A stretch of 64,000 bases of DNA, taken from the NCBI GenBank assembly GCA_034434835.1, contig DAOTXX010000064.1, positions 3,402-67,401 of the forward strand, given 5' to 3'. The translations under genes were made by a program, and so were the position numbers. The notes beneath the pieces are model-generated. The model was not told where the DNA came from and did no database searches. It saw only the letters and a program-made list of their open reading frames with translations. This stretch comes from Thermoflexales bacterium. Lineage in GTDB: Bacteria; Chloroflexota; Anaerolineae; Fen-1058. Within the stretch, counting starts at the first letter, position 1, and each line of letters begins with the position of its first letter. Below, piece after piece: positions 1,484 through 20,404 of the stretch.

Positions 1484-1668
1484 TTTTCAATTGGGTGTGG
1501 CTAAAATCGGTTGAGACGCGCCAGTGTCATTGCACAGTGTCATTCTGAGCGCCCGAAGGGCGCGAAGAATCTCGTTTGCGTGGGTCTGAGACCCCTCGCC
1601 TGCCTTCGGCAGGCTCAGGGTGACAAATTGGATCAACCAGATTTAGCCACACCCTTTTCAATTTGACA
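1484..1668. mobile_element. MITE-like non-autonomous element, copy 1 (TIR TTTTCAATTGGGTGTGGCTAAAATCGGTTGA / inverted at other end)
   Basis: About 30-bp terminal inverted repeats; internal conserved core TGTCATTCTGAGCGCCCGAA...GCGCGAAGAATCTCG with nested hairpins; second copy at 41412-41614. Confidence 0.6.
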
Positions 1669-1669
1669 T

Positions 1670-5131: not shown

Positions 5132-5218
5132 CGGGATGCGTCGGCCACTCCGACAGGCTGCTAGTTTTCGGATAGGCTCTTGGCCTTATGAGCAATGGAC
5201 AAGCCGCCCAAGACACGA

Positions 5219-5638
5219 TCACTCTTCAGGGCTGCGGGGCCTCTTGTCACCAACCGCCGGGCGCGAGGCTGGCGATGAGCCGCCATCTTCTGGGCTGGTG
5301 CCAGTCCCCTCCATCGCGCCGCCGGTATCCAGACCCTGCGGATTGAACATGGCATTGAGCACCTTTTTCGGTGCTTTCCAGAGGAGCAGCACAAAAATGA
5401 TATAGTACAGGAAAAAGCCAATCGCCAGACCGATACCGTAATAACCAAACATGGTTTGTTTGGTCTCGACCACTGGCGCGGGGAACACGGCCAACACCGC
5501 CGGGCCGACGAGCGCCGAGATGATCACGGTGATGTCAGCCAGCGTGCGCTCTTTGGTGTTCTTGCGCATGGTATAATAGGTTACCCAGCCGATCACCATG
5601 CCAAAGCCGACTGAGCCGAGAGCAAGTGAAGTCTCCAT
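5219..5638 (-). CDS. Small polytopic membrane protein with Gly/Ser/Pro/Glu-rich C-terminal tail
   Basis: 3-4 predicted TM helices; paralogous to next gene. Confidence 0.5.
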   Translation of the reverse strand: METSLALGSVGFGMVIGWVTYYTMRKNTKERTLADITVIISALVGPAVLAVFPAPVVETKQTMFGYYGIGLAIGFFLYYIIFVLLLWKAPKKVLNAMFNPQGLDTGGAMEGTGTSPEDGGSSPASRPAVGDKRPRSPEE

Positions 5639-5641
5639 CGT

Positions 5642-5905
5642 TCATCTCCTGGGGGAAAAGTGATGGGCGCGACGCCACGGCGCCGAGATCAGCGTCAGAC
5701 CATACAGCGCTACGCCGACGATCAAACCGACGCCATAAAGCACCAGTCCCACCTGGCCCGTGAATACGGATTGGACTGCCGCGCCCAATAGCACGCCCAG
5801 CGCAGCCTTGAACTCGCGCCAGCCGGGCCGGCTGTGGTGAGTCAGGTAAGCTATGATCCAGCCCAAGACCGATCCAAAGCTCAACGCACCGCACAAAACG
5901 ATCAT
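5642..5905 (-). CDS. Small membrane protein, paralogue of 5219-5638 (start trimmed to MIVLCGALSF)
   Basis: LSFGSVLGWIIAYL / VLYGVGLIVGVALYGL align with LGSVGFGMVIGWVTYY / FGYYGIGLAIGFFLYY of neighbour. Confidence 0.45.
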   Translation of the reverse strand: MIVLCGALSFGSVLGWIIAYLTHHSRPGWREFKAALGVLLGAAVQSVFTGQVGLVLYGVGLIVGVALYGLTLISAPWRRAHHFSPRR

Positions 5906-5946
5906 ACGCAAAAGTATAGCCCGGACACGATTGAGACGCAAGTCAT

Positions 5947-6315
5947 ATGAACCGCCGCGAGTTTGAGCGCCTGGTCGCGCAAGCGTTGGACGACCTGCCC
6001 GACACTCTGAGGGATCGCCTCGACAATGTCGAGATCGTCGTGGAGCCATACGCCGACCCCGAGACCTTGCGCCAGGCCGGGGTCCGTCATCCGATGGAAC
6101 TGCTCGGGTTTTATCACGGTGTTCCGCTGACTGACCGCGGCCAGGGTTACACGCTCGTCTTGCCAGACAAGATCAGCATCTACCAGTTGCCCATCGAGCG
6201 CGCCTGCCGCACACCGGAGGCGATCCGCGCGCAGGTGCGCCGGACCGTGATGCACGAACTGGCCCACCACTTTGGCCTGGACGACGATCAATTGCATGAA
6301 CTCGATGCGTATTGA
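5947..6315 (+). CDS. Minimal zincin-like metallopeptidase family protein (HExxH)
   Basis: About 120 aa, HELAHHFG motif; resembles the Zincin_1 family of small putative metallopeptidases. Confidence 0.6.
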   Translation: MNRREFERLVAQALDDLPDTLRDRLDNVEIVVEPYADPETLRQAGVRHPMELLGFYHGVPLTDRGQGYTLVLPDKISIYQLPIERACRTPEAIRAQVRRTVMHELAHHFGLDDDQLHELDAY

Positions 6316-6713
6316 ATCACGGATTTCTCACGGCTTGCACAGATGGGCAAACATTCCGCCAAGGCAAGTTAGCGCAATAGGTCAAGTGGCGCCAAGAAAA
6401 CGCAACTGTTCAACCGTCATTGCGAGGAGGCCCGCGGAGCGGACCGACGGCGCTGGTTACAGCGCGCAATCTCCTATCCGCGTGGAGATTGCTTTGCGCC
6501 TCTGCAGGGCGCTCGCAGCCCTGACACCGCCCGCCAGAGCAATTGTGACAGCCCACGTGGTATACGGAGCGCACTTGGATTTTGTGAATTGGCCCGTAGT
6601 GACGACTTTAGTTGTCCAGGTTGGCAAGCGACTCAAGTCGCTACTACGAGCCGCTGAAATTCACAGATCTGAAAGGCGATCAGTATAGACCAAGCTGAAT
6701 AGAAAACAAGGAG

Positions 6714-8072
6714 ATGAGCATGGACAAGTTTGAAGCGTATGTGGAAGCGAATCGCGATCGGTTCATCGCCGAGCTGCAGGCTTTTTGCCGCCAGCCCAGC
6801 GTGGCCGCGCAGAATTGGGGCATGCGCGAGATGGCCGACTTGGTGCTGACGCGACTCGAGAAACTGGGCGCAGACGCGCGCATCATCCCGGTCGAGGGCG
6901 GCGCGCCGGTCGTCTATGGCGAGATCGGCAGCGGCCCGCGCACGCTGATGATTTACGATCACTATGACGTGCAGCCGCCGGAGCCGCTCGAGCTTTGGGA
7001 GACCGGTCCATGGGAAGCAGCCATTCGCGATGGGAAAATCTTTGCACGCGGCGTGGCCGACAACAAGGGCGATCTGTTGTGCCGCATCCAGGCGATCGAA
7101 ACGTACCTGGCGACGATCGGGCCGCTGCCGCTCAAGATCAAATTCGTCTACGAAGGCGAAGAAGAGATCGGCAGTATCCATCTGCCGCAGTTTGTCAAGG
7201 AGAACCACCAACTCTTGCAAGGGGTAGATGGCTGTCTGTGGGAATTTGGCGGCAAGGATATTAACGAGCGATTCCAACTCACCTGCGGACTCAAGGGCAT
7301 TGTCTATGTCGAATTGCATGCGCACGGGGCGAATCGCGATCTGCACTCGGCGTTGGCCGCGATCGTCGTGGACCCGGCGTGGCGGCTGACGTGGGCACTG
7401 GCGACGTTGAAGGACGAGAGCGACAACATCCTGATTGATAATTTCATGAGCCATGTCCGCCCGCCCACTGAGGCCGAGAGGGAGACACTCAAGCACATCC
7501 CATTTGACGAAGAGAAGGAAAAGGCCGATTTCGGCATCCCGGCCTTTATCCGTAACTTGACTGGCCTCGAATTGCTCGAAAAGTATCTCTACGAGCCGAC
7601 CTGCACGATCTGCGGCCTGTATTCGGGTTACATTGGTCAAGGCTCCAAGACTGTGTTGCCGAATCACGCCTTTGCCAAGATTGATTTCCGCCTGGTCCCT
7701 AACCTCACGCCCGACCTGGTCGTTGACCTGTTGAAGAAACATCTGGGGCGGCGCGGTTTTAGCGACATTGAGGTGAGCATGACCGAGACCGGCGAAGAGG
7801 TCGCGCGCTCGTCGCTCGACTCGCCCATCGTCCGCGCCGCGGTCGAAGCAGCCCAAGCCGTGTACCCCAGCGCGCCGGTGATCAACCCGACTTCAGCGGG
7901 GAGCGGGCCAATGTACCCGCTGTGCCAGGCGTTGGGGATCCCGGCGGTGAGCGCAGGCTGCGGCTGGCATGGCGCGCGCGGACATGCGCCCAATGAGAGC
8001 ATCCGCCTCGCAGATTACTTTCAGTGCATGTCCTTTATCCGCGAGCTGATCGATCACTTTGCGAGGATGTAG
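6714..8072 (+). CDS. M20 family metallopeptidase (ArgE/DapE/CPG2-like)
   Basis: HYDVQP, GVADNKGD, EGEEEIGS metal-binding motifs of M20 dipeptidases/deacylases. Confidence 0.8.
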   Translation: MSMDKFEAYVEANRDRFIAELQAFCRQPSVAAQNWGMREMADLVLTRLEKLGADARIIPVEGGAPVVYGEIGSGPRTLMIYDHYDVQPPEPLELWETGPWEAAIRDGKIFARGVADNKGDLLCRIQAIETYLATIGPLPLKIKFVYEGEEEIGSIHLPQFVKENHQLLQGVDGCLWEFGGKDINERFQLTCGLKGIVYVELHAHGANRDLHSALAAIVVDPAWRLTWALATLKDESDNILIDNFMSHVRPPTEAERETLKHIPFDEEKEKADFGIPAFIRNLTGLELLEKYLYEPTCTICGLYSGYIGQGSKTVLPNHAFAKIDFRLVPNLTPDLVVDLLKKHLGRRGFSDIEVSMTETGEEVARSSLDSPIVRAAVEAAQAVYPSAPVINPTSAGSGPMYPLCQALGIPAVSAGCGWHGARGHAPNESIRLADYFQCMSFIRELIDHFARM

Positions 8073-8120
8073 ATCAAAGCTTCCCACAGGCCCGGTGCCT
8101 ACGGGAAGCGCAATGAATCA

Positions 8121-9056
8121 TCAGACAATGACTCGAAGCTTGCGCGGCAAGATTTCCATCATGAGCGCTTTGGCGCAGGTGGCATAGATCTCGCCGTCGG
8201 CGTGAACGGCATAGCCCTCCTCGCAGCGCACGGTCACATGTTTGGCGCGCATCATGTGCACGTGAGGGTTGGTGGCTTGCGTGCCCTTCATAAAGAGCGG
8301 GATCAGCATGAACATTTCAACGCGGCGAACCTGATCGACCAGGCAGATGTCAAACAGACCATCATCCATTTCGGCTTGCGGCGTGACATAGAATCCGCCA
8401 CCGAGTCGCCGCCCATTGGAAACCGAGATCATCATCATCGGGCGCTCGATGCGCTGGTCGTCTAGTTCGACGATGGCGCGCGGCGCGCGATAATACCACA
8501 GCATCGTCTGCAGCACCGCCAACGTGTACATCAGGAACCCGCGCGCCCAACTGAGCTTGCGGCTCACAATGTTGACCGTGCCATCAAAACCGATGCCCAC
8601 ACCGTTGCCAAAGTAACGGCCGTGATCAGAATCGCCCCAGATTCGGCCCAGGTCAATCCAACGTGTCTTGCCCGTGTAAAAGTAGCGGAGGATGGCCTCG
8701 AGTGTTTTGCGATCGTGCGCGCGCGGCATGCCCAGCATCCACGCGAAATCATTCCCCGACCCGATCGGGATCAGGCCGAGCGCGGCACGGCTATTCTCGC
8801 CGTGTCCGCTCCTCATCAGGCCATTGACCACTTCTTGCGCCGTTCCATCGCCGCCCGCGGCGGCAATGATGTCATAACCTTCCTCACAGGCGCGCGTGGC
8901 CAGCTCAATAGCTTCGCCAGGCCGGGACGTCTCCACCCAACTGACCTCGCCGTTCTCGCTCAGCCATGATCGAATGTGCGGCCCCAACTCGCGGGCGTGT
9001 CCGTGATCGGCGGCCGGGTTGAAAATTACCTGGATTCGTGGCATCTTGCTCCCCAT
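8121..9056 (-). CDS. Diacylglycerol kinase catalytic-domain lipid kinase (YegS/DagK-like)
   Basis: RIQVIFNPAADHG..., IIAAAGGDGT, IPIGSGNDFA motifs. Confidence 0.8.
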   Translation of the reverse strand: MGSKMPRIQVIFNPAADHGHARELGPHIRSWLSENGEVSWVETSRPGEAIELATRACEEGYDIIAAAGGDGTAQEVVNGLMRSGHGENSRAALGLIPIGSGNDFAWMLGMPRAHDRKTLEAILRYFYTGKTRWIDLGRIWGDSDHGRYFGNGVGIGFDGTVNIVSRKLSWARGFLMYTLAVLQTMLWYYRAPRAIVELDDQRIERPMMMISVSNGRRLGGGFYVTPQAEMDDGLFDICLVDQVRRVEMFMLIPLFMKGTQATNPHVHMMRAKHVTVRCEEGYAVHADGEIYATCAKALMMEILPRKLRVIV

Positions 9057-9251
9057 CGCGGCGAGCCTTGCGAAGGCTGTATATGCGTGTAATTAAAACA
9101 CTGCAAACAGCACAAGGTAACGCTTGCCCCCCTACATAAAGCATGCTATACTCTCGCGCAATTACGTCAATCGGCGCAGTTCCTCGTTTTGACAACGTGA
9201 GCAATTTGACTACAATTATCGTCGCATCACAAGCGATTACATGGCAAAGTT

Positions 9252-9527
9252 GTGATCAGGTTAGAAGGCACTCGGCGCGAGCAATTGATTGAAGAATGGA
9301 CCACACGGCTGGAGCGATGGGGATGGATGCCTGTTGCTCCGGTCCTGTTCCAGGTGCTTCGGCCACTGGGATTTCTCGGCAGCCAGGCCGTGTTGTTCGG
9401 GCAGCCTCTCTTGACGCTGTTTGCAGACGGCCAAATGTGGTCAGAATTGTCATCGTTGCTGGATGATCAAGACGCGCTGGGTCAGATTGAGAACCGCTTG
9501 ATCGGCACAGATCACCCGGCCTCTTAG
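9252..9527 (+). CDS. Hypothetical small protein, first gene of conserved-looking operon
   Basis: ORF preceded by TTGACA-16-TACAAT promoter-like sequence (9195-9228); no recognisable motif. Confidence 0.35.
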   Translation: MIRLEGTRREQLIEEWTTRLERWGWMPVAPVLFQVLRPLGFLGSQAVLFGQPLLTLFADGQMWSELSSLLDDQDALGQIENRLIGTDHPAS

Positions 9528-9538
9528 GAGCAAGTTCA

Positions 9539-10285
9539 GTGCCAGAGCCTACACTCATTGCGGGTCTATTCATCGCTGCGGTGATAGGCGCGTTGGTCAT
9601 CGGGCGTGCCTGGGCTGCCCGTCATCCCACTGTGCGTCCGTTGCAGGGCTTTCGGGTACTGCCGGGCCAGCAGAGCCGCGCGATCGAAAGTGGGCAAAGC
9701 TTTCACATCGCGCTGGGCACTGGCAGCGTGAGCAGCAGTGACACGGCGACCACGTTGGCAGGGTTGGCCGTGTTGGAATCTCTGGCCGACGAAGCCGCCG
9801 CAACGGATACCCCTCCCACAGTGACCGTAGCAGATCCGACGACCCTCGCCCTGGCGCAAGATGTTCTCCGCCGCGCCTACATCCGTCACGGCAATCTGGC
9901 CGGTTTCGATCCGCGCTCGGTCCGCTACGTAGCGGCCTCGCCTCTGCCTTACGCAGCAGGGGTGATGGACATTCTCGCCAGCGAAGATACGTCGGCCAGC
10001 GTCATGGCCGGCGTGTTCGGCACGGAAGCCGCGTTCATTGCCGAAGAAGGCTCCAAGCAAGGATTCCTTCAGGTGGCCGGCGCGGCTGATCCCACGCCAT
10101 TGGGCGTCATGTACCCCTCGGTGAACCACCTGCTGATCGGCGAAGAGATGTTTGGCGCCGGCGCGTACATCAGCGAGCACCCCTCGCACGTGGCCAGCCT
10201 GTTGGCGCAAGATGTCGCTCGCTTGGTGCTGTTCCTGATCATTCTCGCCGCCTGGCTCGGTGGGCTGCTTGGAGGCGCCCGGTGA
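9539..10285 (+). CDS. Hypothetical protein with N-terminal TM anchor and C-terminal TM
   Basis: Hydrophobic N- and C-termini; 4-bp overlap with next gene. Confidence 0.4.
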   Translation: MPEPTLIAGLFIAAVIGALVIGRAWAARHPTVRPLQGFRVLPGQQSRAIESGQSFHIALGTGSVSSSDTATTLAGLAVLESLADEAAATDTPPTVTVADPTTLALAQDVLRRAYIRHGNLAGFDPRSVRYVAASPLPYAAGVMDILASEDTSASVMAGVFGTEAAFIAEEGSKQGFLQVAGAADPTPLGVMYPSVNHLLIGEEMFGAGAYISEHPSHVASLLAQDVARLVLFLIILAAWLGGLLGGAR

Positions 10286-10965
10286 AGCGCTACCTTCCCT
10301 CCGTCGTTGTCATGGCAGTCGGCTGGATCACATTGCTCACTTATTTCCTGCCTGGCCTGGTGTTCGTCCGGTTGCTCTTGGTCGAGGTGGCGATCATTGT
10401 GGTCGCATTGGGCATGATCCTGGGCGCCGGGAATGTGCTCTCAGTCCATCTGACCCAGGTCTCGCGCGGGCCATCCAGGTTCTTGAGTTTTGTGTTGGTG
10501 GCCAGCTTCCTGATTGTGTTCATGGTCTCTTTCATCTTTGAGGGAGGCGCGGACCTGGCAAGCAAGTTTGTGGCAGGGCGCATGGTACAAGATGCCCCCC
10601 ACATCGCGCAGCAAGGCGTCGCTGGCCCGGTGATGGTCGGCGTGTATCAATACGTCCTGATCCCGACCCAATCTGCGCTCGCGGCGCTCCTGCCGTTCCT
10701 CCTGGCTTTTGCTGCCTACCGAACGTTGCGGATACGCACTGCGGCGAGCCGCGCCGGAGCTGCCGTATTTTTGATCACAGCCATATTGGTGTTGTTGGGT
10801 CAGGTTCCACTCCTCAACTTGGGGTTTCTTGGTGATATACGCGAGTGGGTCGTGAGCGTATTGGCGATGGCCGGCATGCGTGGCATCCTGCTAGGCGTCG
10901 CTATTGGCATCACGGCGACCGCCTTGCGTGTGCTGATTGGGGCAGATCGCCCGACGAGTGACTGA
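10282..10965 (+). CDS. Polytopic integral membrane protein (about 6 TM)
   Basis: Hydropathy of translation; stop overlaps next start. Confidence 0.45.
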   Translation: MKRYLPSVVVMAVGWITLLTYFLPGLVFVRLLLVEVAIIVVALGMILGAGNVLSVHLTQVSRGPSRFLSFVLVASFLIVFMVSFIFEGGADLASKFVAGRMVQDAPHIAQQGVAGPVMVGVYQYVLIPTQSALAALLPFLLAFAAYRTLRIRTAASRAGAAVFLITAILVLLGQVPLLNLGFLGDIREWVVSVLAMAGMRGILLGVAIGITATALRVLIGADRPTSD

Positions 10966-13460
10966 TGATCACCTGTCCGAATTGCGGCGCATCGAATCCA
11001 GACCATAACCTGTTTTGTGACCGGTGTGACACCCGACTGCCTTCATCGGGTGCGTCGAGTAGCCGCCGTTGCCCGATGTGCGGCAAGGCTAACCCGCCAG
11101 GTAGCGACACGTGTGTCTCGTGCGGCGCGCGCCTGGTTCCAGTGACAGGCCCACTGGCCCAGCAACCTGCGCCGACTTTACGTCCTTCGGCAGCGGAAAC
11201 GATAGCTGCCAAGCCAACGCCACCTGCAGCCGCGCCCAAACCCGAGCCTCCGCTGGGGCCTTCCGACGACTGGCTCAGCAGCTTGCGCGGCGCGCTGCCC
11301 GAGCAGACCGCACCTGAAGAAGAGATTCCAGACTGGTTGCGCGGCGAGCCTTCCGCGCCGGTCGAAGTTGAACCGCCGGAACTCGATCTCGCGGCGCGAT
11401 TGGGTGGAGCGCAAGCCGCTCAGCCCGAAGCTCCCGACTGGCTCCAACAACTTGCGCCCAAGCCTTCCGCTCCAGCAGTTCCTGCGCCCGCGCCTGTGGA
11501 ACAAGTACCTGATTGGCTCCAGCAACTTGCGCCCACACCTCCCAAGGCGGCGCCTCCGTCTCCTGCTCCGGCGGCTCCGCCACCCGGCGACCAAGTGCCC
11601 GATTGGCTCAAGCCATTTGCTCCGGCGGCGGCGGTTGCCGCAAGTGCCCAGCCTGCGCCTGCCGCACCGCCCTCTGCAGAACCAGAGCCTCGCCGGATGT
11701 CACCCAAGCCGCCTGTGCCACCTGCTACAGCCGCGCCAACGCCAGGCGAGGCCGAGATTCCCGATTGGCTCAAGGAGCTTGCGCCGACACCGGCTCAAGC
11801 TCCATCCAAGCCTGCAGCGCCCACACCCGCGGAAGCCCAAGTTCCCGATTGGCTCAAGCCACCTGCGCCGACAGCTCCCCAACCTGCAGAAGCCGAGGTG
11901 CCCGATTGGCTCAAAGGGCTGGGGCCTACGCCGGCACCTGTCGAGGCCAAGGCTCCTCCACCTGCCTTCATCGAGCCTGCTGCTGCTCCGGTAGCCGCCG
12001 AAGCAGAGGTGCCGGATTGGCTGCGCGAACTGACCGCAACTCCTGCTGCGCCCCCACCGGCTGGCCCGGCCTTGGTCGCTGAGCAAGTGCCAACTGTCGA
12101 GACGCCGCTGTGGCTCGCCGAGATCAGCGCTCAACCAACCCCGGCAGAAGCTCAGATCGAGTCCCCGGAGTGGCTGAAGGAACTGCAGGTGCAGGCTCCA
12201 ACAGAACTACCTGTGGCCCCGGTTCAGGTTCCTGCACTTGCCGAAGAAGCGCCCGCCGAGGCTGCCGAGGAGTTGCCGGACTGGCTGAAGGAACTGGGGC
12301 CAGCAGGCGCGCCTGCCGCTCGGGCGCCGGTGTTCACTGGGCCGCCTGCTCCGACTCCGGCCCTGCAGCCTGAAGCCATTGGCCTGACGACTGCCCCACT
12401 TCCGGCGTGGCTGCAAAAGCTTGCGCCCCGCGAGGTGGCCCCAGAGGCAGAGAAAGAACCCGCTGAAACTGAGGGCCTATTGGCCGGGGTGCATGGCCCA
12501 TTGCCAGCAGCGCCCATCATCACGCAAAAGGCGACCGGCGAGCGCCGCCCGATGCGTCCTGAAATTCCCGCCGCCGATCTGTCGCGCGCGGGGACGCTGC
12601 AAGAACTGCTTGCGCGTGGCCCAGCCCGGGTTGTCCGTCGCGAGGTCCAAAGCCGCGCGCAAAGGCTGTGGTTCAACACGCAACGCTGGTTCATCTTTCT
12701 GGTCATCCTGGCAGTCGCCCTCATCCCACTCTTGCAACCAGATTGGGCAGTGATATTGGTGAGGGCACCGCTGTTCAAACCTGCCACCAACCATGTGTTC
12801 CAGAGCATCCAGGCCCTCAAGCCGGATGCGACGGTCTTGGTGTCGTTCGACTATGACGCGAGCCAGGCCCCCGAGATGGACACCCAAGCGCGCGTGCTGT
12901 TGCGCCACCTGGCAGCGCGCAAGGCGCGCGTCAATGTGGTCAGCTTGTATCCCACCGGCCCGGCTGTGGCAGAAGCGGTCATCCATCAGGTCAACCAGAC
13001 GCTCACGGTCACCGAGCGGGTCAATATAGCCAGCCTCAAGTACGTGCCTGGCCAGGATATGGCAGTGGCCTTTATATCGGGCGACGTGCTCACGTCGTCG
13101 TTGGTTATTGAACTGGCCGCCACCCCCGAAACCTTGCGCTGGTGGGTCGAGCAGACGTCGGCGCTCCGGGAACCGCCAGTTTCCCAGCAGCCCCCGCCGC
13201 TGTTGGCGGGCGTCAGCGCTGCAGCCGAGCCAATGTCTCAGCCGTACTATCAGAGCGAACAGATCAAAGGCATGTTGGCTGGCGTCCCCGATGCCACAGC
13301 CTACCGGCTCAAGCTTCGTGAGGTGGTCAAGGACGATCAGACGCCATTGCCCAGTGTGCTCGCGCCGCTGGCGTCCATCGGTCTTGCCAACGGGGCGCTC
13401 GTGTTGTTGATCCTGATCGGCGGCCTGGTCCAACTCGCTACAGGAGGCAGACGCAGATGA
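10965..13460 (+). CDS. Double zinc-ribbon protein with about 13 proline-rich PDWL(K/R/Q)xLAP repeats, TM helix, extracytoplasmic domain and C-terminal TM
   Basis: N-terminal CPNCG...CDRCD...CPMCG...CVSCG; repeated (E/Q)(V/I)PDWL motif; two hydrophobic segments bracket a ~250-aa domain. Confidence 0.6.
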   Translation: MITCPNCGASNPDHNLFCDRCDTRLPSSGASSSRRCPMCGKANPPGSDTCVSCGARLVPVTGPLAQQPAPTLRPSAAETIAAKPTPPAAAPKPEPPLGPSDDWLSSLRGALPEQTAPEEEIPDWLRGEPSAPVEVEPPELDLAARLGGAQAAQPEAPDWLQQLAPKPSAPAVPAPAPVEQVPDWLQQLAPTPPKAAPPSPAPAAPPPGDQVPDWLKPFAPAAAVAASAQPAPAAPPSAEPEPRRMSPKPPVPPATAAPTPGEAEIPDWLKELAPTPAQAPSKPAAPTPAEAQVPDWLKPPAPTAPQPAEAEVPDWLKGLGPTPAPVEAKAPPPAFIEPAAAPVAAEAEVPDWLRELTATPAAPPPAGPALVAEQVPTVETPLWLAEISAQPTPAEAQIESPEWLKELQVQAPTELPVAPVQVPALAEEAPAEAAEELPDWLKELGPAGAPAARAPVFTGPPAPTPALQPEAIGLTTAPLPAWLQKLAPREVAPEAEKEPAETEGLLAGVHGPLPAAPIITQKATGERRPMRPEIPAADLSRAGTLQELLARGPARVVRREVQSRAQRLWFNTQRWFIFLVILAVALIPLLQPDWAVILVRAPLFKPATNHVFQSIQALKPDATVLVSFDYDASQAPEMDTQARVLLRHLAARKARVNVVSLYPTGPAVAEAVIHQVNQTLTVTERVNIASLKYVPGQDMAVAFISGDVLTSSLVIELAATPETLRWWVEQTSALREPPVSQQPPPLLAGVSAAAEPMSQPYYQSEQIKGMLAGVPDATAYRLKLREVVKDDQTPLPSVLAPLASIGLANGALVLLILIGGLVQLATGGRRR
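11260..12420 (+). repeat. Degenerate tandem coding repeats (GTNCCNGATTGGCTNAAG... units) inside 10965-13460
   Basis: Recurrent CCCGATTGGCTCAAG/CCGGACTGGCTGAAG at irregular 60-120 bp spacing. Confidence 0.6.
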
Positions 13461-14200
13461 TCCCGCCCATTGACGTGATCACGACGACCGTCGCTGCGCT
13501 GCTGACGTTGTTTGTATTCGGCTATTTGTTGGGCGACTTGCCTGGTCTTGGCGCGCTGTTCAAGTTCTTGTATCGCCTGGCGATGCACGTCCTCATCGGC
13601 GCAGGTGTGGCGTACGCGTTTGCTGTTGCCATGTGGAGCATTATCTTTCAACGCGTTGCGGTGCGCCTGGTGCAATTCGCCGCCGAGTTCACACGAGTCG
13701 GCTTTCAGATTTCGCAAGTCAGCCCGGAAGGTTGGTTCAACTTGAGCGTCCCTGCTGTGGGCGTTGTGCTGGGCGGACTGTTGCTTTTCAAGCTCAGCCG
13801 CAGCACAGCCTGGTTGGGCAATCTTGCCACCAGCTATCTGGTCGGCGTGGGATTGGCAGTCGCCCTGGGCGGCGCGCTGATCGGAACCCTGTTCGCGCAG
13901 ATCAGGGCGACCAGTCAGGCCGGGATCACGTTCACTTTATTGGACCCCCTGATCGTGTTAGTGGGCACACTGACGGCGCTGGTCGCCTTTACTTTTACGG
14001 CCACCGCACGCCGGGGCGTGCTGGGAGTGGTGTCGCGTGGTGTGCAGGGTGTCGGGGTTCTGGGGCGGCTCTTTGTGTATCTTGCGCTCGGCGCGGCGTT
14101 TGCCGGAGCCTATGCAGCCAGTGTGGCCGTGCTCGTGGGGCGGCTGCAGTTCTTGATCGAGGCGCTCGAGACGATAGTGGGATACTTTTTAGGTGGCTAG
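13457..14200 (+). CDS. Polytopic integral membrane protein
   Basis: About 7 hydrophobic helices; overlaps previous stop. Confidence 0.45.
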   Translation: MIPPIDVITTTVAALLTLFVFGYLLGDLPGLGALFKFLYRLAMHVLIGAGVAYAFAVAMWSIIFQRVAVRLVQFAAEFTRVGFQISQVSPEGWFNLSVPAVGVVLGGLLLFKLSRSTAWLGNLATSYLVGVGLAVALGGALIGTLFAQIRATSQAGITFTLLDPLIVLVGTLTALVAFTFTATARRGVLGVVSRGVQGVGVLGRLFVYLALGAAFAGAYAASVAVLVGRLQFLIEALETIVGYFLGG

Positions 14201-14203
14201 CCA

Positions 14204-15976
14204 TTGGAAGAAACGCGCGTCGAATCCATCTTAGCCATTGATATTGGCTCGGTGCTGACCAAGACGACGCTCATTGCGCGCGTCGAAGGCACGTATCGCT
14301 TTGTCGGTCGCGCCGAAGCGCCCTCGACGGTTGAATCGCCGTGGTTGGACATGATCGCTGGAGTGGACCACGCGCTGACGCAGCTTTCGGCCATCACACG
14401 GCGAACCGTGCTCGACGATCACGGACGGCTGATCACGCCGGAGCGCGAAGATGGCAAAGGCGTAGATGTGTGCGTGATCACCGTCAGCGCCGCCGAGCCG
14501 CTCCGGCTGGTGCTGATCGGGCTTTCGGCAGATCTGTCGGTGGCGAGTCTTCAACGTGCGGCACATAGCACCTATACCCAGGTGATTGATGTGCTGACGC
14601 GTTCCGGCAGCCTGGATGGACGCGTCGCCAAGCGGCTGACTGAGGAAGATCGCGTCCGGCGCATCTACCGCGCGCGGCCTGACGCAGTGTGCGTCGTCGG
14701 CGGAACAGATGGCGGCGCCAAAGTGCCCGTGATCGAATTGGTGGAAAGTGCGGCGCTGGCGGCCTCGTTGTTAGGCGAGGCGCGCCGTCCGCGCATCCTG
14801 TTTGCAGGCAACGCCAGCCTGCGCTCCAAAGTCGCCGAAAGTGTTGGCGCCGAAGCCGAACTCCACGTGGTGGATAACGTTCGCCCAGGTGTAGACGTGG
14901 AAAACATTGGGCCGACGCTGATTGAACTGGAAGCGATGTACCAGGCCATCAAGGTCAGGCGACTGCCAGGCTTTGACTCGCTGCGCACGTGGTCATCGCT
15001 GCCGGTGTTGCCCACTTCACACGCCCTCGCCACCGTGATTCAATACCTCAGCCTGGAAGACACGCGCAAGGGCGCGCTCGGCGTAGATGTGGGCGCTTCT
15101 TCAACGACGATTGCAGCAGCGCGCGCCGGGCAGGTGCAGCTCCATGTCCGCACCGATCTGGGCACAGCGCTCGGCGCGCGGGGCGTGCTCAAAGCGCGCG
15201 GCGAAGAGACCCTCGCGCGCTGGCTGCCCTTTGAGGCCAAGCCCGGCGAGATCGAAGCGGTGGTGACACAAAAGGAAATGTACCCAGCTTCGGTGCCGCA
15301 AGGGCAGAACGAGTTGCTCATCGAGCAGGCTATCGCGCGCGAGGCGTTGCGCCTGGCGCTGGCTCAAGCGCGAAGCGCCTGGCCGTTTGAACTGAGCGGC
15401 CCGTACCCGACACTTTTGCCATACCTCGAACCGATCATCGGCGGTGGGAGCGTCATCGGACGCGCGCCGCGTCCCGGTCAGGCTGCGCTCATGCTGCTCG
15501 ACGCGCTGGAGCCGATCGGCGTGACGACGCTCGTGCTCGATATGGGCGGCTTGTTGCCAGCCCTGGGGGCGTGCGCACTGGCGCATCCACTTTCGACAGT
15601 GCAGGCGCTCGCGACAGGCGGGCTCACGACGTTGGGCACAGTCGTCGTACCGGTGAGCTCGGGCCGCCCCCGGGCTGGTGAAACGATCCTGGACGTTCGC
15701 ATGAAGTATCAGACGGGCGGCGACCTGGGAGTCCAGGTGGCCGCGGGTTCGCTCGAAGTGCTGCCCTTGCCAATCGGCCAAAAGGCTGTGCTGGAACTGC
15801 GGCCGCGCGGTGGCATTGACATTGGGCGTGGGCGTGGGCGAGGCGGCTCGATCGAAGTGCTGGGCGGACTGGTAGGATTGATCATTGACGCGCGAGGACG
15901 CCCGCTGCTCTTGCCAGCCGATCCGGGCAAGCGCCGCGAGCGCATTCAACAGTGGCTATGGGATGTGGGAGCGTAA
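14204..15976 (+). CDS. Actin-fold (ASKHA) ATPase resembling glutamate-mutase accessory protein GlmL/MutL and EutA
   Basis: Duplicated phosphate-1-like motifs LAIDIGSVLTKT and LGVDVGASSTT in N- and C-halves, VVGGTDGG adenosine-like motif; TTG start. Confidence 0.5.
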   Translation: MEETRVESILAIDIGSVLTKTTLIARVEGTYRFVGRAEAPSTVESPWLDMIAGVDHALTQLSAITRRTVLDDHGRLITPEREDGKGVDVCVITVSAAEPLRLVLIGLSADLSVASLQRAAHSTYTQVIDVLTRSGSLDGRVAKRLTEEDRVRRIYRARPDAVCVVGGTDGGAKVPVIELVESAALAASLLGEARRPRILFAGNASLRSKVAESVGAEAELHVVDNVRPGVDVENIGPTLIELEAMYQAIKVRRLPGFDSLRTWSSLPVLPTSHALATVIQYLSLEDTRKGALGVDVGASSTTIAAARAGQVQLHVRTDLGTALGARGVLKARGEETLARWLPFEAKPGEIEAVVTQKEMYPASVPQGQNELLIEQAIAREALRLALAQARSAWPFELSGPYPTLLPYLEPIIGGGSVIGRAPRPGQAALMLLDALEPIGVTTLVLDMGGLLPALGACALAHPLSTVQALATGGLTTLGTVVVPVSSGRPRAGETILDVRMKYQTGGDLGVQVAAGSLEVLPLPIGQKAVLELRPRGGIDIGRGRGRGGSIEVLGGLVGLIIDARGRPLLLPADPGKRRERIQQWLWDVGA

Positions 15977-16020
15977 TACGCTAGTAGATCATGTTGCGTC
16001 TTACGTCTGACGTTTGAAGC

Positions 16021-17103
16021 ATGGATGACGAATCAGTAGGATTCTATTCATACGAGGCGCACGTCATGCCGCTGACCATGATCCGGCGTGAGCGGCGTCT
16101 GCCGATGCCGGGCGAAGTGATGGTCCGCCCCGGCGAGCGCGTTGAGCCGACGCAAGTTGTGGCGCGCGTTCACCAGACACAAGACTTTCGCATTATGGAC
16201 GTTGCGCGTGCCTTGCGTGTGCCACGCTCGCAGGTCAAGCGGTTCATGCTCAAAGAGGTCGGCGCGACCGTCGAAGTCAACCAACCCCTGGCGGCGCGCG
16301 GCGGGCTGTTTCGCCGGATCGTCCGCGCGCCGGCCAAGGGCGCGATCGTCGCCGTCGGCAATGGGCGGGTGCTGCTCGAAGTCGAGCCAGAGTTGGTCGA
16401 AGTGCGCGCTAACCTCACGGGCACCGTCATCGCCGTGACGCCGGGGCTGAGCGTCACGATCGAGACGCCCGGCGCGATTGTGCAGGGGATGTGGGGCTGC
16501 GGCGGCGAGGCGTTCGGCGTTTTGCGCGTCGTGGCCGAAAGGCGCGACGAGTCGCTGCGCGCCAAACATGTTGACGTGGCGTGTCACGGCGCCATCGTCA
16601 TCGGCGGCGGGACGATTGAGGCTTCGGCGTTGGAGCAGGCGCAGCAGCTCCAGGTGCGGGGGCTTATCGCTGGGAGCATGGAGGGCGAGATGCGCGCTCA
16701 GGCAGAAGCGATGCCGTTCCCCATTATCCTGACGGAAGGCTGGGGCCGTGTGCCGATGGCGGAGCCGATCTTTAACCTTCTCCAAGCCCAGACGGGCCGT
16801 GAAGCGTCCATCAGCGCCGAGACGCGCGCGCGCTTTAGTTTCAAGCGTCCCGAGATCCTCATCCCCTTGCCTACTGAAACCCGGCCCGCGCTTCCACCTC
16901 CGCCGGGCGCGCCGCTCTTTGTAGGAGCCAAAGTGCGCGTCGTGCGCCCGCCATACCTGGGTATGGTCGGCGTGGTTGCGGCGATCTCGCCTCAGGCTCA
17001 GCGTATAGCCAGTGGCGCGCGCGTGCGCGGCGTTGAGGTAGACCTGGGTGGAGATGCCGGCACCGTATTTGTGCCCTATGTCAATTTGGAGCTTTTGAGG
17101 TAA
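16021..17103 (+). CDS. Hypothetical protein (Gly/Val-rich beta-like segments)
   Basis: No recognisable catalytic motif; same strand, follows ATPase. Confidence 0.4.
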   Translation: MDDESVGFYSYEAHVMPLTMIRRERRLPMPGEVMVRPGERVEPTQVVARVHQTQDFRIMDVARALRVPRSQVKRFMLKEVGATVEVNQPLAARGGLFRRIVRAPAKGAIVAVGNGRVLLEVEPELVEVRANLTGTVIAVTPGLSVTIETPGAIVQGMWGCGGEAFGVLRVVAERRDESLRAKHVDVACHGAIVIGGGTIEASALEQAQQLQVRGLIAGSMEGEMRAQAEAMPFPIILTEGWGRVPMAEPIFNLLQAQTGREASISAETRARFSFKRPEILIPLPTETRPALPPPPGAPLFVGAKVRVVRPPYLGMVGVVAAISPQAQRIASGARVRGVEVDLGGDAGTVFVPYVNLELLR

Positions 17104-17223
17104 AATTATAGATACAGGCCGCTAGCCAGAGAGTGCTCCTCTGGAGGGCGGCTAAAATCAAGACAAACTCTATAGAACCGGCGTCGTCTGTTGTCGCGCT
17201 TTGCCCCTCAGAGGAGGAATGCA

Positions 17224-17793
17224 ATGGCAATAGAAGAAGAAGAGCCGATGGTCGGTGTGCCTGAGGAGGAAGAAGGCGCAGAGTCTTCCAATCGAATGTT
17301 CATGTTGCTGGCGCTGGGCCTGGGCGCGCTGTTCGTCGTTGGGCTGATCTGCATCGGCGCGGTGTTCTTTATGCAGCAAGGCCAGTCGAATCAGCAAAGG
17401 GCAGCACTCGCCACACAGTCGGCCAGGCAAACGGCAGCGGCTATTGCAGCCTTGCCGACGGCGACGCCACCCGCACCGACGGACACGCCGGTGCCGCCCA
17501 CACCGACGTCCGTTCCACCGACCAACACGCCGGTTGTTCCCACCCCCACCCTGCCAGCCCCGACCGAAACGGTCATGCCGACTGCAGCCGGGGTAAGCAA
17601 AGCCACGGCAACCGCTGGGCCGGGGACCAAAGTGGCCGCCGCCACGTCCGCACCGGGCGCGGCTGCAACTGCCACCACGGAAGCGGGCAGCACTCCGCAG
17701 ACAGGCGTGGGCGGCGTTGAGATGGTCTTGGCGGCAGGGGCTTTGTTGGTAGTGTTGTTTGCCGCTCGGCGGCTGCGCCTGGCACAACACTAG
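17224..17793 (+). CDS. Secreted/anchored Pro-Thr-rich protein with C-terminal sorting-signal-like tail
   Basis: RBS GAGGAGG 7 nt before ATG; N-terminal TM/signal; PT-rich; C-terminal TPQTG + hydrophobic stretch + RRLRLAQH. Confidence 0.5.
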   Translation: MAIEEEEPMVGVPEEEEGAESSNRMFMLLALGLGALFVVGLICIGAVFFMQQGQSNQQRAALATQSARQTAAAIAALPTATPPAPTDTPVPPTPTSVPPTNTPVVPTPTLPAPTETVMPTAAGVSKATATAGPGTKVAAATSAPGAAATATTEAGSTPQTGVGGVEMVLAAGALLVVLFAARRLRLAQH

Positions 17794-18035
17794 GAGACCG
17801 CTGAAAAAGTCATCTTTCTACCGCAGAGGCCGCTGAGGACGCCGAGTTTTGTTAGGTTTTCTCTGCGCTCTCTGCGCGCTCAGCGGTGAAAGAAGGGGTT
17901 TTTCAGCACTCTCCTAGGAGACCACTGAAAAAGTCATCTTTCTACCGCCGAGGCCGCTGAGGACGCCGAATCTTATTAGGTTTTGTCCGCGCTCTCTGCG
18001 CGCTCTGCGGTGAAGAGGGGACAGCACTCTCCTAG
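17790..18035. repeat. Two tandem copies of a ~123-bp unit flanked by inverted ends CTAGGAGACCNCTGAAAAAG / CAGCACTCTCCTAG
   Basis: Direct comparison 17790-17913 vs 17914-18035, about 90% identical; internal GCCGCTGAGG ... CTCAGCGG pairing. Confidence 0.7.
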
Positions 18036-18130
18036 TCTCGATCTGAGCCGCCGAGGTGAGCCAACGCGGGTGCCGCGTTCTGCGTTGGCTCGTTTTTGTT
18101 CCATGCGCCATGTTCGTTTGAGGGTATAAC

Positions 18131-19510
18131 ATGATGCTTGATTCTGCCTTTGTCCCTCATCGAGCGGATCTGGCTCGCTTGATGTCATTGTTGTCGGACG
18201 GCGAGTGCTGTTCAGTCGTTGCGCTCAGTAACATGGGCAAGTCTACACTGCTGCGCTATGCATGCCTGCCAGAGGAACAGCAACGCTTCCTGGGTGTTCG
18301 CGCGTGCGACATCGCATTTGTCTACGTGGACTGCAACCTGATGCTGGAGCTTTCCGGGCAGGGCTTTTACGAGGTCGTTCTCCGCAGCGCGCTGTCTGAG
18401 GTCAAGCGATTGGGCGCAGCTCCAGAGCTGGTCGAACGCCTGCAAGGGCGGTACAACAAAATCGTCGAGCCGACTTCGCACTTTATGGATTCGTTGAGTT
18501 TCAACGAAGCCATAGTCGTGCTGAGCGAAGAGCTAGATCGCCGCGTCGTGTTTCTATTCGACGAGTTTGACGATCCCTTTGCCCGGCTCGACGGGCGCGT
18601 GTTCTTGAATCTGCGCGCACTGCGTGACAAGTATGGCCCCCGGTTGTGTTTTGTGACGGCCACGGGCATTGACCTGTGCACCCAGCGCCAGGATGCCGAA
18701 GCCGCCGAGTTTTGCGAGTTGTTCACCGAGCGCGTGATCCATGTGGCCGGGCTGGACCCGGACGAAGCTCGCCAGGTGGTGATCAACATCGCCCGGTTGG
18801 AGAGGACCAAGCTCGATCGCGACGAGATCGAGTTTGTGGTCAAGCAGGCCGGTGGGCACCTGGGCCTGTTGCAGGCGGTCACGAACGTGGTGCTGCGCGT
18901 GGCCGCGGGTGTACCGCCCGGCGTGCGCGCGCACAGCCTGATGATGGCCAGGCAGCAACTCGATAGCGAAGGCCCGGTGCGACTCGAATGTGCCAAATTG
19001 TGGGAGCAGTTGACACCCGACGATCGAGATGCGCTGCTGCGCTTCCTGGCGGGTGGCAGCCAGCCGCCACTCGATGAGGCAATGCAGGCGCTCGTCCGCA
19101 AGGGCATCCTGGTTGACGGAGAGTCACCCGCGGTGTTCAGCGAGTTGTTTGCGGGCTATGCTCGCCGCCAGCATCGCGTCCAGCAATCGGTGCGCCCCGG
19201 CATTTACGTGGACGTGGACAGCGGCGATGTGTGGGTAAACGGCGAACGCACACCCGTCCTGACCGATCACGAGTATCGTCTGCTGCTGCTCCTGTATGGC
19301 CGAATGAACAAGATCGTCACACGTGACGACGTAGCCGAAGCCGTCTGGGGCGCAGATTATATGGAAGAGATTGACGATGCTCGCTGCGACAAGCTCCTCA
19401 GCCGCCTGCGCGCCAAGATCGAGCCTGACCCGGCCAACCCCAAATACCTGCACACGGTGCGCGGACGCGGATACAAACTGGTCAACGACGCAAGTTCGGA
19501 GACGCCATAA
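18131..19510 (+). CDS. P-loop ATPase fused to C-terminal OmpR/PhoB-type winged-helix DNA-binding domain
   Basis: Walker A ALSNMGKST; C-terminal ...NGERTPVLTDHEYRLLLLLYGR...TVRGRGYKL typical of trans_reg_C. Confidence 0.6.
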   Translation: MMLDSAFVPHRADLARLMSLLSDGECCSVVALSNMGKSTLLRYACLPEEQQRFLGVRACDIAFVYVDCNLMLELSGQGFYEVVLRSALSEVKRLGAAPELVERLQGRYNKIVEPTSHFMDSLSFNEAIVVLSEELDRRVVFLFDEFDDPFARLDGRVFLNLRALRDKYGPRLCFVTATGIDLCTQRQDAEAAEFCELFTERVIHVAGLDPDEARQVVINIARLERTKLDRDEIEFVVKQAGGHLGLLQAVTNVVLRVAAGVPPGVRAHSLMMARQQLDSEGPVRLECAKLWEQLTPDDRDALLRFLAGGSQPPLDEAMQALVRKGILVDGESPAVFSELFAGYARRQHRVQQSVRPGIYVDVDSGDVWVNGERTPVLTDHEYRLLLLLYGRMNKIVTRDDVAEAVWGADYMEEIDDARCDKLLSRLRAKIEPDPANPKYLHTVRGRGYKLVNDASSETP

Positions 19511-20404
19511 ATGGAGTGGAAGAATCAGCCTCGCCTGGGCACCCAGGTCGGTATTGGCCTGATCGTATGGCTGGTGCTGTTGGACGTATTGTTGGTGTGG
19601 ATCGCCGCACAGCTTCCGGTCTCGATCGTCACGTTTGTGGTGGCGGTGATCGCGCTGGCGACGCTGCCAGTCATACTGCTGATCGTTTACTGGCTGGTTG
19701 GCCTGAACCGGACATCGTATTGGATGGATCGTAACATGCTGATTATCCGTTGGGGGCCAGTGCAGCAAATTATCCCCATGGCGTCTATCCAAAAGCTGTT
19801 GCACGGTTCCGAGATCGCCGGGCAGGTGCGCCGGTTTCGCGGCGGTCGCTGGCCGGGGCTGTGGGTGGGCCAGGCCGAGGCCCAAAGCATCGGGCCGGTT
19901 CTCTTTTACGCTTCGGGCGGGTTGGAGCAACAGGCCATCATCATCACGCCAGGGCTGGCGTATGCCATCTCGCCGCATGATCTGGCCGGGTTTGTCGAAG
20001 CGTTTGATCAGCGCCAAAAGATGGGACCGACGCAGGCCGTCGAGCAGGTGTCCATCCGGCCCGAGATTTTCGATTGGTCGCTGTGGACCGATCGGCTGGC
20101 GCTGGGGTTAGTTGGAGCCGCTGTGGCGAGTTGCCTGCTGCTGTTCGGCTATACCTGTCTGCGCTTTCCTGAACTGGCCCCGCGCGTCGCTTTGCACTTT
20201 GACGCGGCGGGCGTGCCAGATCGCTTTGGCCCGCGCGCCCAGGTGTTTCTCTTGCCGTTCATCGGATTGCTTTCGCTGGGCACAGATCTCGTCCTCAGCG
20301 TGCCGGTGTATCTGCGTGACCGCGTGGGAGCGTACCTGCTGTGGGGTGGAGCAATGATCGTCCAGGTCCTGGCCTGGATTGCAGCGGTGGGCATCGTATC
20401 ATAA
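19511..20404 (+). CDS. Membrane protein (3 N-terminal TM, central soluble domain, 3 C-terminal TM), possibly bacterial PH-like
   Basis: ATG immediately after TAA of 18131-19510; hydropathy. Confidence 0.4.
   Translation: MEWKNQPRLGTQVGIGLIVWLVLLDVLLVWIAAQLPVSIVTFVVAVIALATLPVILLIVYWLVGLNRTSYWMDRNMLIIRWGPVQQIIPMASIQKLLHGSEIAGQVRRFRGGRWPGLWVGQAEAQSIGPVLFYASGGLEQQAIIITPGLAYAISPHDLAGFVEAFDQRQKMGPTQAVEQVSIRPEIFDWSLWTDRLALGLVGAAVASCLLLFGYTCLRFPELAPRVALHFDAAGVPDRFGPRAQVFLLPFIGLLSLGTDLVLSVPVYLRDRVGAYLLWGGAMIVQVLAWIAAVGIVS

Follow-up and report, generated by a model that had tools for sequence, protein, structure and literature searches.

The locus described here raises the question of what an actin-fold ATPase of the Pfam MutL/GlmL family is doing in the midst of genes for membrane proteins. 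It occupies positions 9252-17793 of a 64-kb stretch of contig DAOTXX010000064.1 from a Thermoflexales bacterium (assembly GCA_034434835.1), the whole of which was analysed and is referred to as the window. The original prediction had described a compact nine-gene operon at this site that maps to no named pathway. The open reading frame (ORF) list of the window contains only eight same-strand ORFs within this range, named g1 to g8 (Table 1), with the next gene, g9, lying outside it and beyond a terminator-like hairpin. These eight genes very probably constitute one functional membrane system, apparently an envelope-spanning, multi-subunit system so far undescribed, the parts of which match no described machine. 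The reading favoured for it, at a probability of roughly one in three, is that g6 and g7 would form an ATP-driven engine working by mechanotransmission on a five-subunit platform that reaches the envelope. Profile searches with hidden Markov models (HMMs; Pfam, NCBIfam and PADLOC) placed no gene in a characterised pathway, in agreement with what had been predicted, and no paper on this gene cluster was found in the literature. A defence system was considered and rejected, with PADLOC returning no match at E ≤ 0.01 for any of the eight proteins.

Gene order and conservation of the cluster

The genes were found to be as tightly packed as had been proposed, with overlaps of 4 nt (10285/10282), 1 nt (10965/10965) and 4 nt (13460/13457) followed by a gap of 3 nt (14200/14204), the other intergenic gaps being 11 nt (g1-g2), 44 nt (g6-g7) and 87 nt (g7-g8). 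The near-consensus promoter claimed for the divergent, AT-richer region upstream of g1 was also upheld. GC content dips to 0.53 in this region compared to 0.60-0.68 inside genes, and in the closest relative (locus L006) the promoter is identical at every base, the approximately 120 nt surrounding it being more conserved than expected of non-functional intergenic DNA, while the proteins there are 52-76% identical. At the other end of the block, a tandem palindromic element and a hairpin with a T-run lie 3’ of g8, and g1 to g8 are therefore most likely one transcription unit, with g9 and the gene following it (g10) being separate. This hairpin, which an automatic terminator scan passed over because its loop exceeds 8 nt, is the likely end of the operon. 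With one strong promoter before them, a terminator-like hairpin after them and overlapping or abutting junctions in between, the genes are treated as one unit.

Conservation was assessed using tblastn of every window protein against related loci. At least 565 species-level genomes were found to hold a relative of g6, and the 80 best of these all belong to Chloroflexota (Anaerolineae, Thermoflexia or other). The order g2-g3-g4C-g5 (g4C being the C-terminal module of g4) was found to be colinear ahead of g6 in 50 of the 56 Chloroflexota loci with sufficient upstream DNA, whose ATPases share 40-76% identity with that of the window, and the notion of a conserved block thus withstood the possibility that synteny would be absent among related genomes. 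Taken singly, homologues were detected in 69 of 84 loci for g4, in 73 of 84 for g5 and in 23 loci for g1. The gene g7 directly follows g6 in 74 of 75 loci, and a g8-like gene follows g7 in at least 56 of 70, including Thermoflexales loci without g2-g5 upstream. Judged by gene order, g6 and g7 appear to be the tightest pair, and the trio g6-g7-g8 is regarded as the tightest unit since it is kept together where g2-g5 are not adjacent. The g7 family comprises 1041 clusters at 50% identity (E ≤ 1e-30).

The reach of the cluster beyond Chloroflexota consists of two metagenome-assembled genomes of unknown phylum, labelled only “bacterium” (loci L085 and L086) and belonging to one of the remoter clusters of the g7 family, further non-Chloroflexota contigs being too short for use. 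Both carry g1, g2, g3, g4C, g5, g6 and g7 (profile E-values of 1e-20 to 1e-92) in the order DUF6754-g3-g4C-g5-g1-MutL-DUF6134-g7, followed by a second DUF6754-g3-g4C-g5 set, DUF6754 and MutL being the families of g2 and g6. The zinc ribbon and the arm of DWL repeats found in g4 of the window are absent from both, as is g8, which is also absent from locus L087 where the core is otherwise complete. As these distant loci hold g1-g7 without the remaining features, g1-g7 are taken to be the old core, with the zinc ribbon, DWL arm, g8 and g9 being additions made in Chloroflexota. In L085 (positions 1-15414), and likewise in L086, the membrane module occurs twice around a single MutL-g7 pair, with a signal-peptide DUF6134 protein encoded between MutL and g7. 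Locus L085 was also found to encode a 515-aa secreted protein, and a bactofilin gene is situated just upstream of its cluster on the other strand.

The ATPase, its partner and the membrane proteins

The product of g6 had been likened to the reactivases GlmL and EutA, a claim that was borne out at the level of the Pfam family. It matches PF13941 (MutL) with 214.5 bits and an E-value of 3.2e-63 (cut-off 27 bits) over profile positions 1-444 of 450, MutL being the only family obtained at E ≤ 0.1, with no match to the FtsA, MreB, ParM or PilM families. The closer assignment did not stand, as g6 widely missed the cut-offs of both the GlmL equivalog NF040745 (85.7 bits, cut-off 475) and the TIGR01319 subfamily (49.9, cut-off 204). 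Moreover, no B12-dependent mutase, lyase or dehydratase was found in the operon, the scanned flanks of the window or the neighbourhoods of loci L001-L004, L016, L085, L087 and L088, the sole B12-binding hit being to a radical SAM enzyme that lies upstream of the L003 cluster.

The phosphate-1 (D13-x-G15-xxx-T19-K) and phosphate-2 (D295-x-G297-xxx-T301) motifs of g6, together with glycines G166, G167 and G171 of its GGTDGG motif, are invariant in 20 homologues of 48-78% identity, and g6 is predicted to be competent as an ATPase. These phosphate motifs had been described as duplicated; they are the ordinary pair of a single ASKHA fold, and no duplication is present. The C-terminus of g6 consists of an extra domain of approximately 120 aa with an invariant D562-A-R-G-R-P-L568 segment and W584, for which hhalign comparison to g7, g2 and g4C gave no more than 5% probability in each case. 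The protein possesses an invariant tail, Q-Q-W-L-W-D-V-G-A (~15953-15973), which reads R-W-L-A-A-L-D-V in L085. This tail and the P-D-W-L-x-x-[LI] repeats of g4 have a common core, W-L-x-x-[LV]; the tail could be a competing ligand or a membrane-targeting helix. No solved structure related to g6 by sequence was identified.

The partner of g6, g7, was modelled (pLDDT 85) as a cytoplasmic protein of three domains. In this model the N-terminal, barrel-sandwich domain resembles the N-termini of RnfC and NqrA, each of them a peripheral subunit of its membrane complex (Rnf and Nqr, respectively). The swivelling domain is similar to the mobile domains found in PEP-utilising enzymes and in the reactivase DdrA, the latter carrying this β/β/α fold as an insert. 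A sequence search of the PDB gave weak KOW and NqrA hints only. With respect to RnfC and NqrA, the RnfC_N score of g7 was 17.4 and missed the cut-off of 25.6, other subunits of Rnf or Nqr are missing from the operon, and neither Fe-S nor flavin motifs could be identified. The difference to the PEP-utilising enzymes lies in an added C-terminal KOW domain and in the position of the phosphohistidine of G-G-x-T-S-H, which is E200 in g7 and Asp or Glu across the family. The candidate role of phosphohistidine carrier was ruled out for g7 since this catalytic position holds Glu or Asp.

Three polytopic membrane proteins had been predicted for the operon. By hydropathy only two were identified, g3 with six transmembrane (TM) helices and g5 with approximately seven, with g2 possessing two TM helices and g1 none. 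Residues G198, R200, G201, G205, G209, R216 and P224 are invariant in g3, while g5 has Gly-rich conserved helices and invariant Y23, Q148 and F178. Scanning of 27 homologues of g3 and 26 of g5, each singly, yielded scattered single hits and no consistent Pfam match, profile searches found no PDB relative for either protein, and each appears from its sequence to be a new family. An exosortase- or rhombosortase-like peptidase acting on g8 was not supported for either, as no conserved Cys/His/Ser catalytic pattern is present. Paralogy within the operon was not supported either, hhalign giving a probability of at most 5% for g3 against g5, g2 against g4C and g7 against g2. For g1 there is no Pfam family; it has a conserved hydrophobic segment (P..F..L+PL.F.GSQ), and its profile retrieved a 117-aa homologue from L085 with an E-value of 9e-21, placed after g5.

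The product of g2 belongs to the DUF6754 family (PF20539; E-value 1.5e-38, 132.9 bits, cut-off 27 bits), the function of which is not known and of which no mention was found in the literature. Its TM helices, at residues 4-22 and 226-244, bracket a soluble domain of approximately 200 aa. This central domain is placed in the cytoplasm because five Arg residues directly follow the first helix and because the DUF6754 homologues of L085 have a signal peptide and an additional N-terminal domain ahead of it. DUF6754 is the best-conserved membrane subunit of the system, with a mean column identity of 47%, invariant Glu and Gly residues and a nearly invariant His. No PDB relative of g2 was found.

The architecture anticipated for g4, that of a double zinc ribbon, PDWL repeats, a TM helix and an extracytoplasmic domain, was confirmed by Pfam, motif listing, hydropathy and modelling. 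Its order was found to be the zinc ribbon, a disordered repeat array, a first TM helix, an ectodomain of approximately 200 aa and a second TM helix. Residues 4-54 match DZR (PF12773) with 36.6 bits and an E-value of 4.9e-9, passing the cut-off of 27.3, and g4 also has a match to Zn_Ribbon_1. Using tblastn, the ribbon was found in 42 of 50 colinear loci. The linker that follows is 23% Pro and 21% Ala and holds 11 P-[DEA]-W-L repeats (for example AEAEVPDWLKGLG), of which 10 are strict P-[DE]-W-L. Among g4 homologues the copy number ranges from 3 to 20 around a core that is almost fixed, as illustrated by a motif logo of 163 copies from 22 homologues (P 100%, W 100%, D/E 99%, L 85%). No other ORF of the window has two or more DWL copies, making g4 the sole array protein there. 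As lineages without the repeats keep every domain of g6 and g7, the repeats are considered a later add-on and not part of the core mechanism.

The zinc ribbon and an Arg-rich stretch precede the first TM helix of g4, and RRR follows the second. The domain between the two helices was modelled as a generic Rossmann-like fold, to which periplasmic binding-protein folds match no better than other Rossmann folds, and g4C has no PDB relative by sequence. The ectodomain of g4 is predicted to lie outside the cell, with the DUF6754 domain inside.

The product of the last gene, g8, begins with an acidic cytoplasmic tail (MAIEEEEPMVGVPEEEEGAESSNRMF) and an N-R-x-F motif; after a TM helix, a PT-rich linker leads to a C-terminal sorting signal. 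Its true start is probably the internal ATG at 17224, which has AGGAA upstream and fits the N-termini of homologues. Among 61 family members the N-terminal tail has a median net charge of -9 and is followed by N-R-T-F before the TM helix (N 90%, R 91%, F 100%). The PT-rich composition and sorting-signal-like end noted in the original prediction were both verified, the signal at 17692-17790, which is conserved in the family, comprising TPQTG, the hydrophobic stretch VGGVEMVLAAGALLVVLFAA and RRLRLAQH, with a family logo of P 75%, T 95% and G 100% for its C-terminal motif. On this evidence g8 is a candidate LPXTG-type wall anchor. Like known LPXTG substrates, it has a C-terminus of [LTV]-P-x-T-G followed by a hydrophobic helix and then RRLR, and one subgroup of its relatives has a canonical LPTTG together with a Fasciclin adhesion domain. 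It differs from such substrates in the TPQTG of the window protein and in its acidic tail with N-R-T-F ahead of the TM helix, which apparently takes the place of a standard signal peptide.

Proposed mechanism and competing explanations

The most economical mechanism for these parts would be mechanotransmission of the FtsEX/MacB kind with a different motor. The membrane platform would be composed of g1, g2 with its domain on the cytoplasmic face, g3, g5 and the C-terminal module of g4 with its Rossmann-like domain outside. The g6 ATPase and its barrel-sandwich/swivel/KOW adaptor g7 would dock on this platform as a cytoplasmic engine. In Hsp70 and the reactivases, both ASKHA proteins, ATP binding and hydrolysis lead to lobe closure and the remodelling of a partner. 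Binding and hydrolysis of ATP may similarly open and close the two lobes of g6, with the swivelling domain of g7, a mobile domain of a type that shuttles between sites in other enzymes, relaying this movement to the membrane subunits and TM helices carrying it to the external domain of g4, which would act on the cell envelope. In Anaerolineae and Thermoflexia, the added zinc ribbon and disordered arm of 3-20 E-Φ-P-D-W-L motifs would, by multivalent docking, enrich the complex for a cytoplasmic partner. The added g8 would turn its acidic tail toward the engine and pass its PT-rich linker through the wall, its LPXTG-type end probably being fixed to peptidoglycan by a sortase, so as to serve as a membrane-to-wall tether or as a client of the complex.

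GlmL/MutL, EutA and DdrA are related to g6 by its full-length Pfam match and by shared ASKHA motifs, and the principle likely held in common is the ATP-driven opening and closing by which a partner is remodelled. In contrast to them, g6 has its extra C-terminal domain of approximately 120 aa, its invariant tail and five membrane-protein neighbours, and no B12 enzyme. The comparison to the type VII ABC systems FtsEX, MacB and LolCDE is one of principle only, namely that of a cytoplasmic ATPase acting through TM helices on an external domain bracketed by two of them, which works on the envelope and does not make a classical pore. None of the eight proteins had a hit to ABC_tran, FtsX or MacB_PCD, and the operon differs from these systems by its actin-fold engine with a three-domain adaptor, its Rossmann-like ectodomain and its five-subunit platform.

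A further likeness is to FtsA-FtsN, MreB-RodZ, PilM-PilN and GltJ, as g4 and g8 are of bitopic type with cytoplasmic linear motifs near a TM helix and Pro-rich linkers. The NCBIfam hits of g8 to the TM-and-linker parts of GltJ and RodZ are weak, lying far below cut-offs in low-complexity sequence, and none of these systems is known for an array of 3-20 identical motifs or includes DUF6754, g3 or g5. As a disordered Pro/Ala/Glu-rich arm with many motif copies of varying number, the g4 array is comparable to the DPW/DPF arrays of epsin and Eps15 and to the FtsZ C-terminal peptide. The tail of FtsZ, D-I-P-x-F-L, appears to resemble the g4 motif, and no connection of the array to partners of FtsZ is apparent. 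In architecture, the g4 arm comes closest to GltJ of Myxococcus, a membrane protein whose cytosolic zinc finger and linker motifs recruit partners, MreB among them (PMC11135422).

Several points weigh against an engine of g6 and g7 acting through the platform on the envelope. That the proteins form one complex is something we infer from synteny alone, and g3 with g5 could just as well be a permease. The model of g4C was derived from a shallow alignment of 15 sequences with 52-64% identity. In four Thermoflexales loci g6-g7-g8 are not adjacent to g2-g5, with unrelated housekeeping genes upstream of the trio in one of these (L016); because of this, the engine may work without the platform, or the platform genes may reside elsewhere in the genome. 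Lineages without the DWL array or g8 keep all domains of g6 and g7, and both features therefore say little on the core mechanism. Regarding the anchoring of g8, no NCBIfam model of LPXTG anchors or other C-terminal sorting signals matched it at E ≤ 0.1, and no convincing ORF for a sortase of the TLxTC type was found in the window. The biochemistry of GlmL is itself poorly defined, and we know of no GlmL-family protein that drives a membrane machine. The glutamate-mutase/GlmL family has also been grouped with the non-polymerising enzymes and chaperones of the actin superfamily (PMC5597319).

That the genes are unrelated and merely adjacent is hardly credible. Apart from the family of the ATPase no functional annotation links them, but this explanation is refuted by their colinearity in 50 of 56 loci at only 40-76% ATPase identity, by the same order in unclassified bacteria and by the overlapping stop and start codons. 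A transporter or translocase is a possible, if rather unlikely, alternative. The permease or channel would then be g3 with g5, the g4 ectodomain would bind substrate or act as a gate, and g6 with g7 would either trap or move a small molecule, a lipid or a polymer as a motor or kinase run by ATP, or form a dedicated route by which the PT-rich client g8 is exported and anchored, in logic comparable to the accessory Sec systems for serine-rich LPXTG glycoproteins. Two polytopic proteins of permease-like size next to a protein of TM-ectodomain-TM layout are consistent with this, and ABC-2 systems with GldG-type auxiliary components have a comparable layout. Many ASKHA proteins are kinases, and a gene for a YegS/DAGK-type lipid kinase is divergent from the cluster in the window, L006, L050 and L088. 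A secreted or surface protein gene also accompanies the engine, be it g8 in Chloroflexota or the DUF6134 signal-peptide protein and the 515-aa secreted protein in L085, and the acidic N-terminus of g8 is unusual in apparently not being a normal signal peptide. However, no transporter family emerged for g3 and g5 from the 53 members scanned and neither protein has a PDB relative, the ectodomain shows no preference for periplasmic binding-protein folds, g8 is missing from L085 and L087 where the core is complete, and transport powered from the cis side is not known for any actin-fold ATPase.

The actin fold of g6 raises the question of whether it would instead polymerise or cluster on the membrane in the manner of FtsA, MreB or PilM, held by g4 through its DWL array and by g8 through its N-R-T-F tail, and so organise wall synthesis, septation or cell-cell junctions. 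Such a positioning scaffold is improbable, although a number of features suit it. Bitopic partners with juxtamembrane or linear motifs and PT-rich or periplasm-spanning linkers are known from FtsN, RodZ, PilN and GltJ; g8 has weak hits to GltJ, RodZ and FliL, driven by low complexity; and the W-L-W-D-V of the g6 tail may form a helix that targets the membrane. In its acidic-Φ-P-x-aromatic-L pattern the DWL motif appears similar to the C-terminal peptide of FtsZ, a bactofilin is encoded beside the L085 cluster and the host clade is filamentous. The zinc finger and linker motifs by which GltJ recruits partners including MreB (PMC11135422) also count in its favour. On the other hand, the GlmL/MutL family to which g6 belongs is grouped as non-polymerising (PMC5597319), g6 matches no HMM of FtsA, MreB or PilM, the motif array is lineage-specific, and the core with its approximately 13 polytopic TM helices and external domain is more than a cytoskeletal anchor needs. 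Membership of the Pfam MutL family would in turn suit a chaperone or activase, in which g6 and g7 use ATP to open a Rossmann-like client, most likely the cytoplasmic DUF6754 domain, so that a bound cofactor or ligand can be exchanged or repaired, the enzyme in this case consisting of the membrane proteins. Reactivases do act on flavodoxin- or Rossmann-like subunits, and the strong conservation of DUF6754, with its invariant Glu and Gly and nearly invariant His, would fit a client of this kind. This explanation is nonetheless also unlikely, as no B12 mutase, dehydratase or lyase occurs in any neighbourhood examined, g6 falls well short of the cut-offs for the GlmL equivalog and subfamily, DUF6754 yielded no recognisable cofactor-binding motif, and the external domain and g8 are left without explanation. 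The descriptions of the operon as an “assembly or export machine” and as “filament related” are conjecture.

In sediments, soils, sludge and hot springs, Anaerolineae and related bacteria are plentiful, with almost nothing known of their envelope biology and long debate over their monoderm or diderm nature. A gene set this large, present almost throughout the clade (at least 565 species-level genomes) and lacking functional annotation, likely serves a basic function of the envelope or of cell organisation. With considerable doubt, the system is tentatively put forward as the first envelope-spanning machine to be powered by an actin-fold (GlmL-family) ATPase and not by an ABC, AAA+ or P-loop motor or the proton-motive force. 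Its seven-protein core, g1-g7, would consist almost wholly of undescribed families spread in Anaerolineae, Thermoflexia and some unclassified bacteria, extended in filamentous Chloroflexota by the DWL arm and a sortase-anchored tether. Should a GlmL-type ATPase indeed drive a membrane complex, the repertoire of the actin/Hsp70 superfamily would be wider, the “B12-reactivase” family would gain a second, unrelated role and many annotations as “glutamate mutase L” would be wrong. Multivalent linear-motif scaffolds would have a clear bacterial example in the DWL arm, and the g8 family would represent a new class of membrane-to-wall tether.

Coordinates, flanking elements and the rest of the window

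Table 1. Features of the g1-g8 operon and its borders, in window positions.
Feature	Position	Strand	Description
Sigma-70-type promoter TTGACA-16-TACAAT	9189..9216	+	11/12 consensus positions; in divergent intergenic region
g1	9252..9527	+	91 aa, GTG start
g2	9539..10285	+	248 aa, DUF6754
g3	10282..10965	+	227 aa, 6 TM
g4	10965..13460	+	831 aa, zinc ribbon/repeat/ectodomain scaffold
g4 double zinc ribbon	10974..11135	+	residues 4-57, cytoplasmic; PF12773
g4 Pro/Ala/Glu-rich linker	11259..12425	+	11 copies of E-Φ-P-D-W-L-x-[GDE]-[LI]; motif listing
g4 TM1	12699-12755	+	residues 579-597; hydropathy
g4 extracytoplasmic Rossmann-like α/β domain	12831..13325	+	residues ~623-787; model
g4 TM2	13374-13430	+	residues 804-822; hydropathy
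g5	13457..14200	+	247 aa, ~7 TM
g6	14204..15976	+	590 aa, actin-fold (ASKHA) ATPase, Pfam MutL/GlmL
g7	16021..17103	+	360 aa, three-domain partner of g6
g7 barrel-sandwich hybrid domain	~16060-16407	+	model
g7 swivelling β/β/α domain	~16408-16875	+	model
g7 KOW/SH3-like domain	~16909-17100	+	model
g8	17191..17793	+	200 aa, PT-rich; probable start ATG 17224
Tandem palindromic element	17790..18014	+	124-nt unit, two copies (TRF: 1.8 copies, 92% match); directly 3’ of g8 stop codon
Terminator-like hairpin	18058..18100	+	perfect 10-bp stem, 14-nt loop, then T-run GTTTTTGTT; inverted-repeat search
g9	18131..19510	+	P-loop STAND-like NTPase with OmpR/PhoB-type winged helix; Trans_reg_C E 1.7e-18, weak nSTAND1

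A single unit of the 124-nt element 3’ of g8 is predicted to form an extended, imperfectly paired hairpin (-56.4 kcal/mol, z = -4.8), with no further copies identified elsewhere in the window. Possible identities are those of a REP/MITE-like element, an element stabilising the RNA, or a small RNA. No Rfam family was found within or beside the operon, the sole Rfam match of the window being a SAM riboswitch (RF00162) at 50271-50377 on the minus strand, with 89 bits and an E-value of 8e-20. On the upstream side, the lipid kinase gene of the YegS/DAGK type that is divergent from the operon lies at 8121-9056 on the minus strand, with the same arrangement in L006, L050 and L088. The intergenic region between them (9057-9251) also contains a second promoter-like site, TTGCCC-17-TATACT at 9124-9152, and is nearly identical in L006.

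The gene g9 is a frequently linked regulator outside the range of the operon, its homologues being placed downstream in 23 of 61 loci as well as in L001-L004 and L088. In the window g9 and g10, the latter encoding a bPH_5 and DUF1648 membrane protein, extend over 18131-20404 and abut without a gap (TAA then ATG), and g10 adjoins a g9 homologue in L003 and L004 as well. Genes for a response-regulator/histidine-kinase hybrid, PspA/IM30, an unknown protein and an SBP+VWA protein were found downstream of the cluster and its regulator in L001 (15585-20765), L002 (12019-17197) and L088 (12669-20352), and this recurrent PspA/IM30 block hints at a link to membrane stress.

No tRNA genes were identified in the window. 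An open frame of 894 codons (stop to stop) at 2504-5185 on the minus strand has weak CBS and CHAT-domain hits and is otherwise unannotated. A cytochrome b gene beside two cytochrome c genes, each of the latter with two cytochrome c domain matches, was found at 25758-29088 on the minus strand and looks like an operon for a bc-type complex. Genes for a class II aminoacyl-tRNA synthetase (D/K/N type), RtcA and a metallo-β-lactamase-fold protein are situated between these bc-type genes and the g1-g8 operon.

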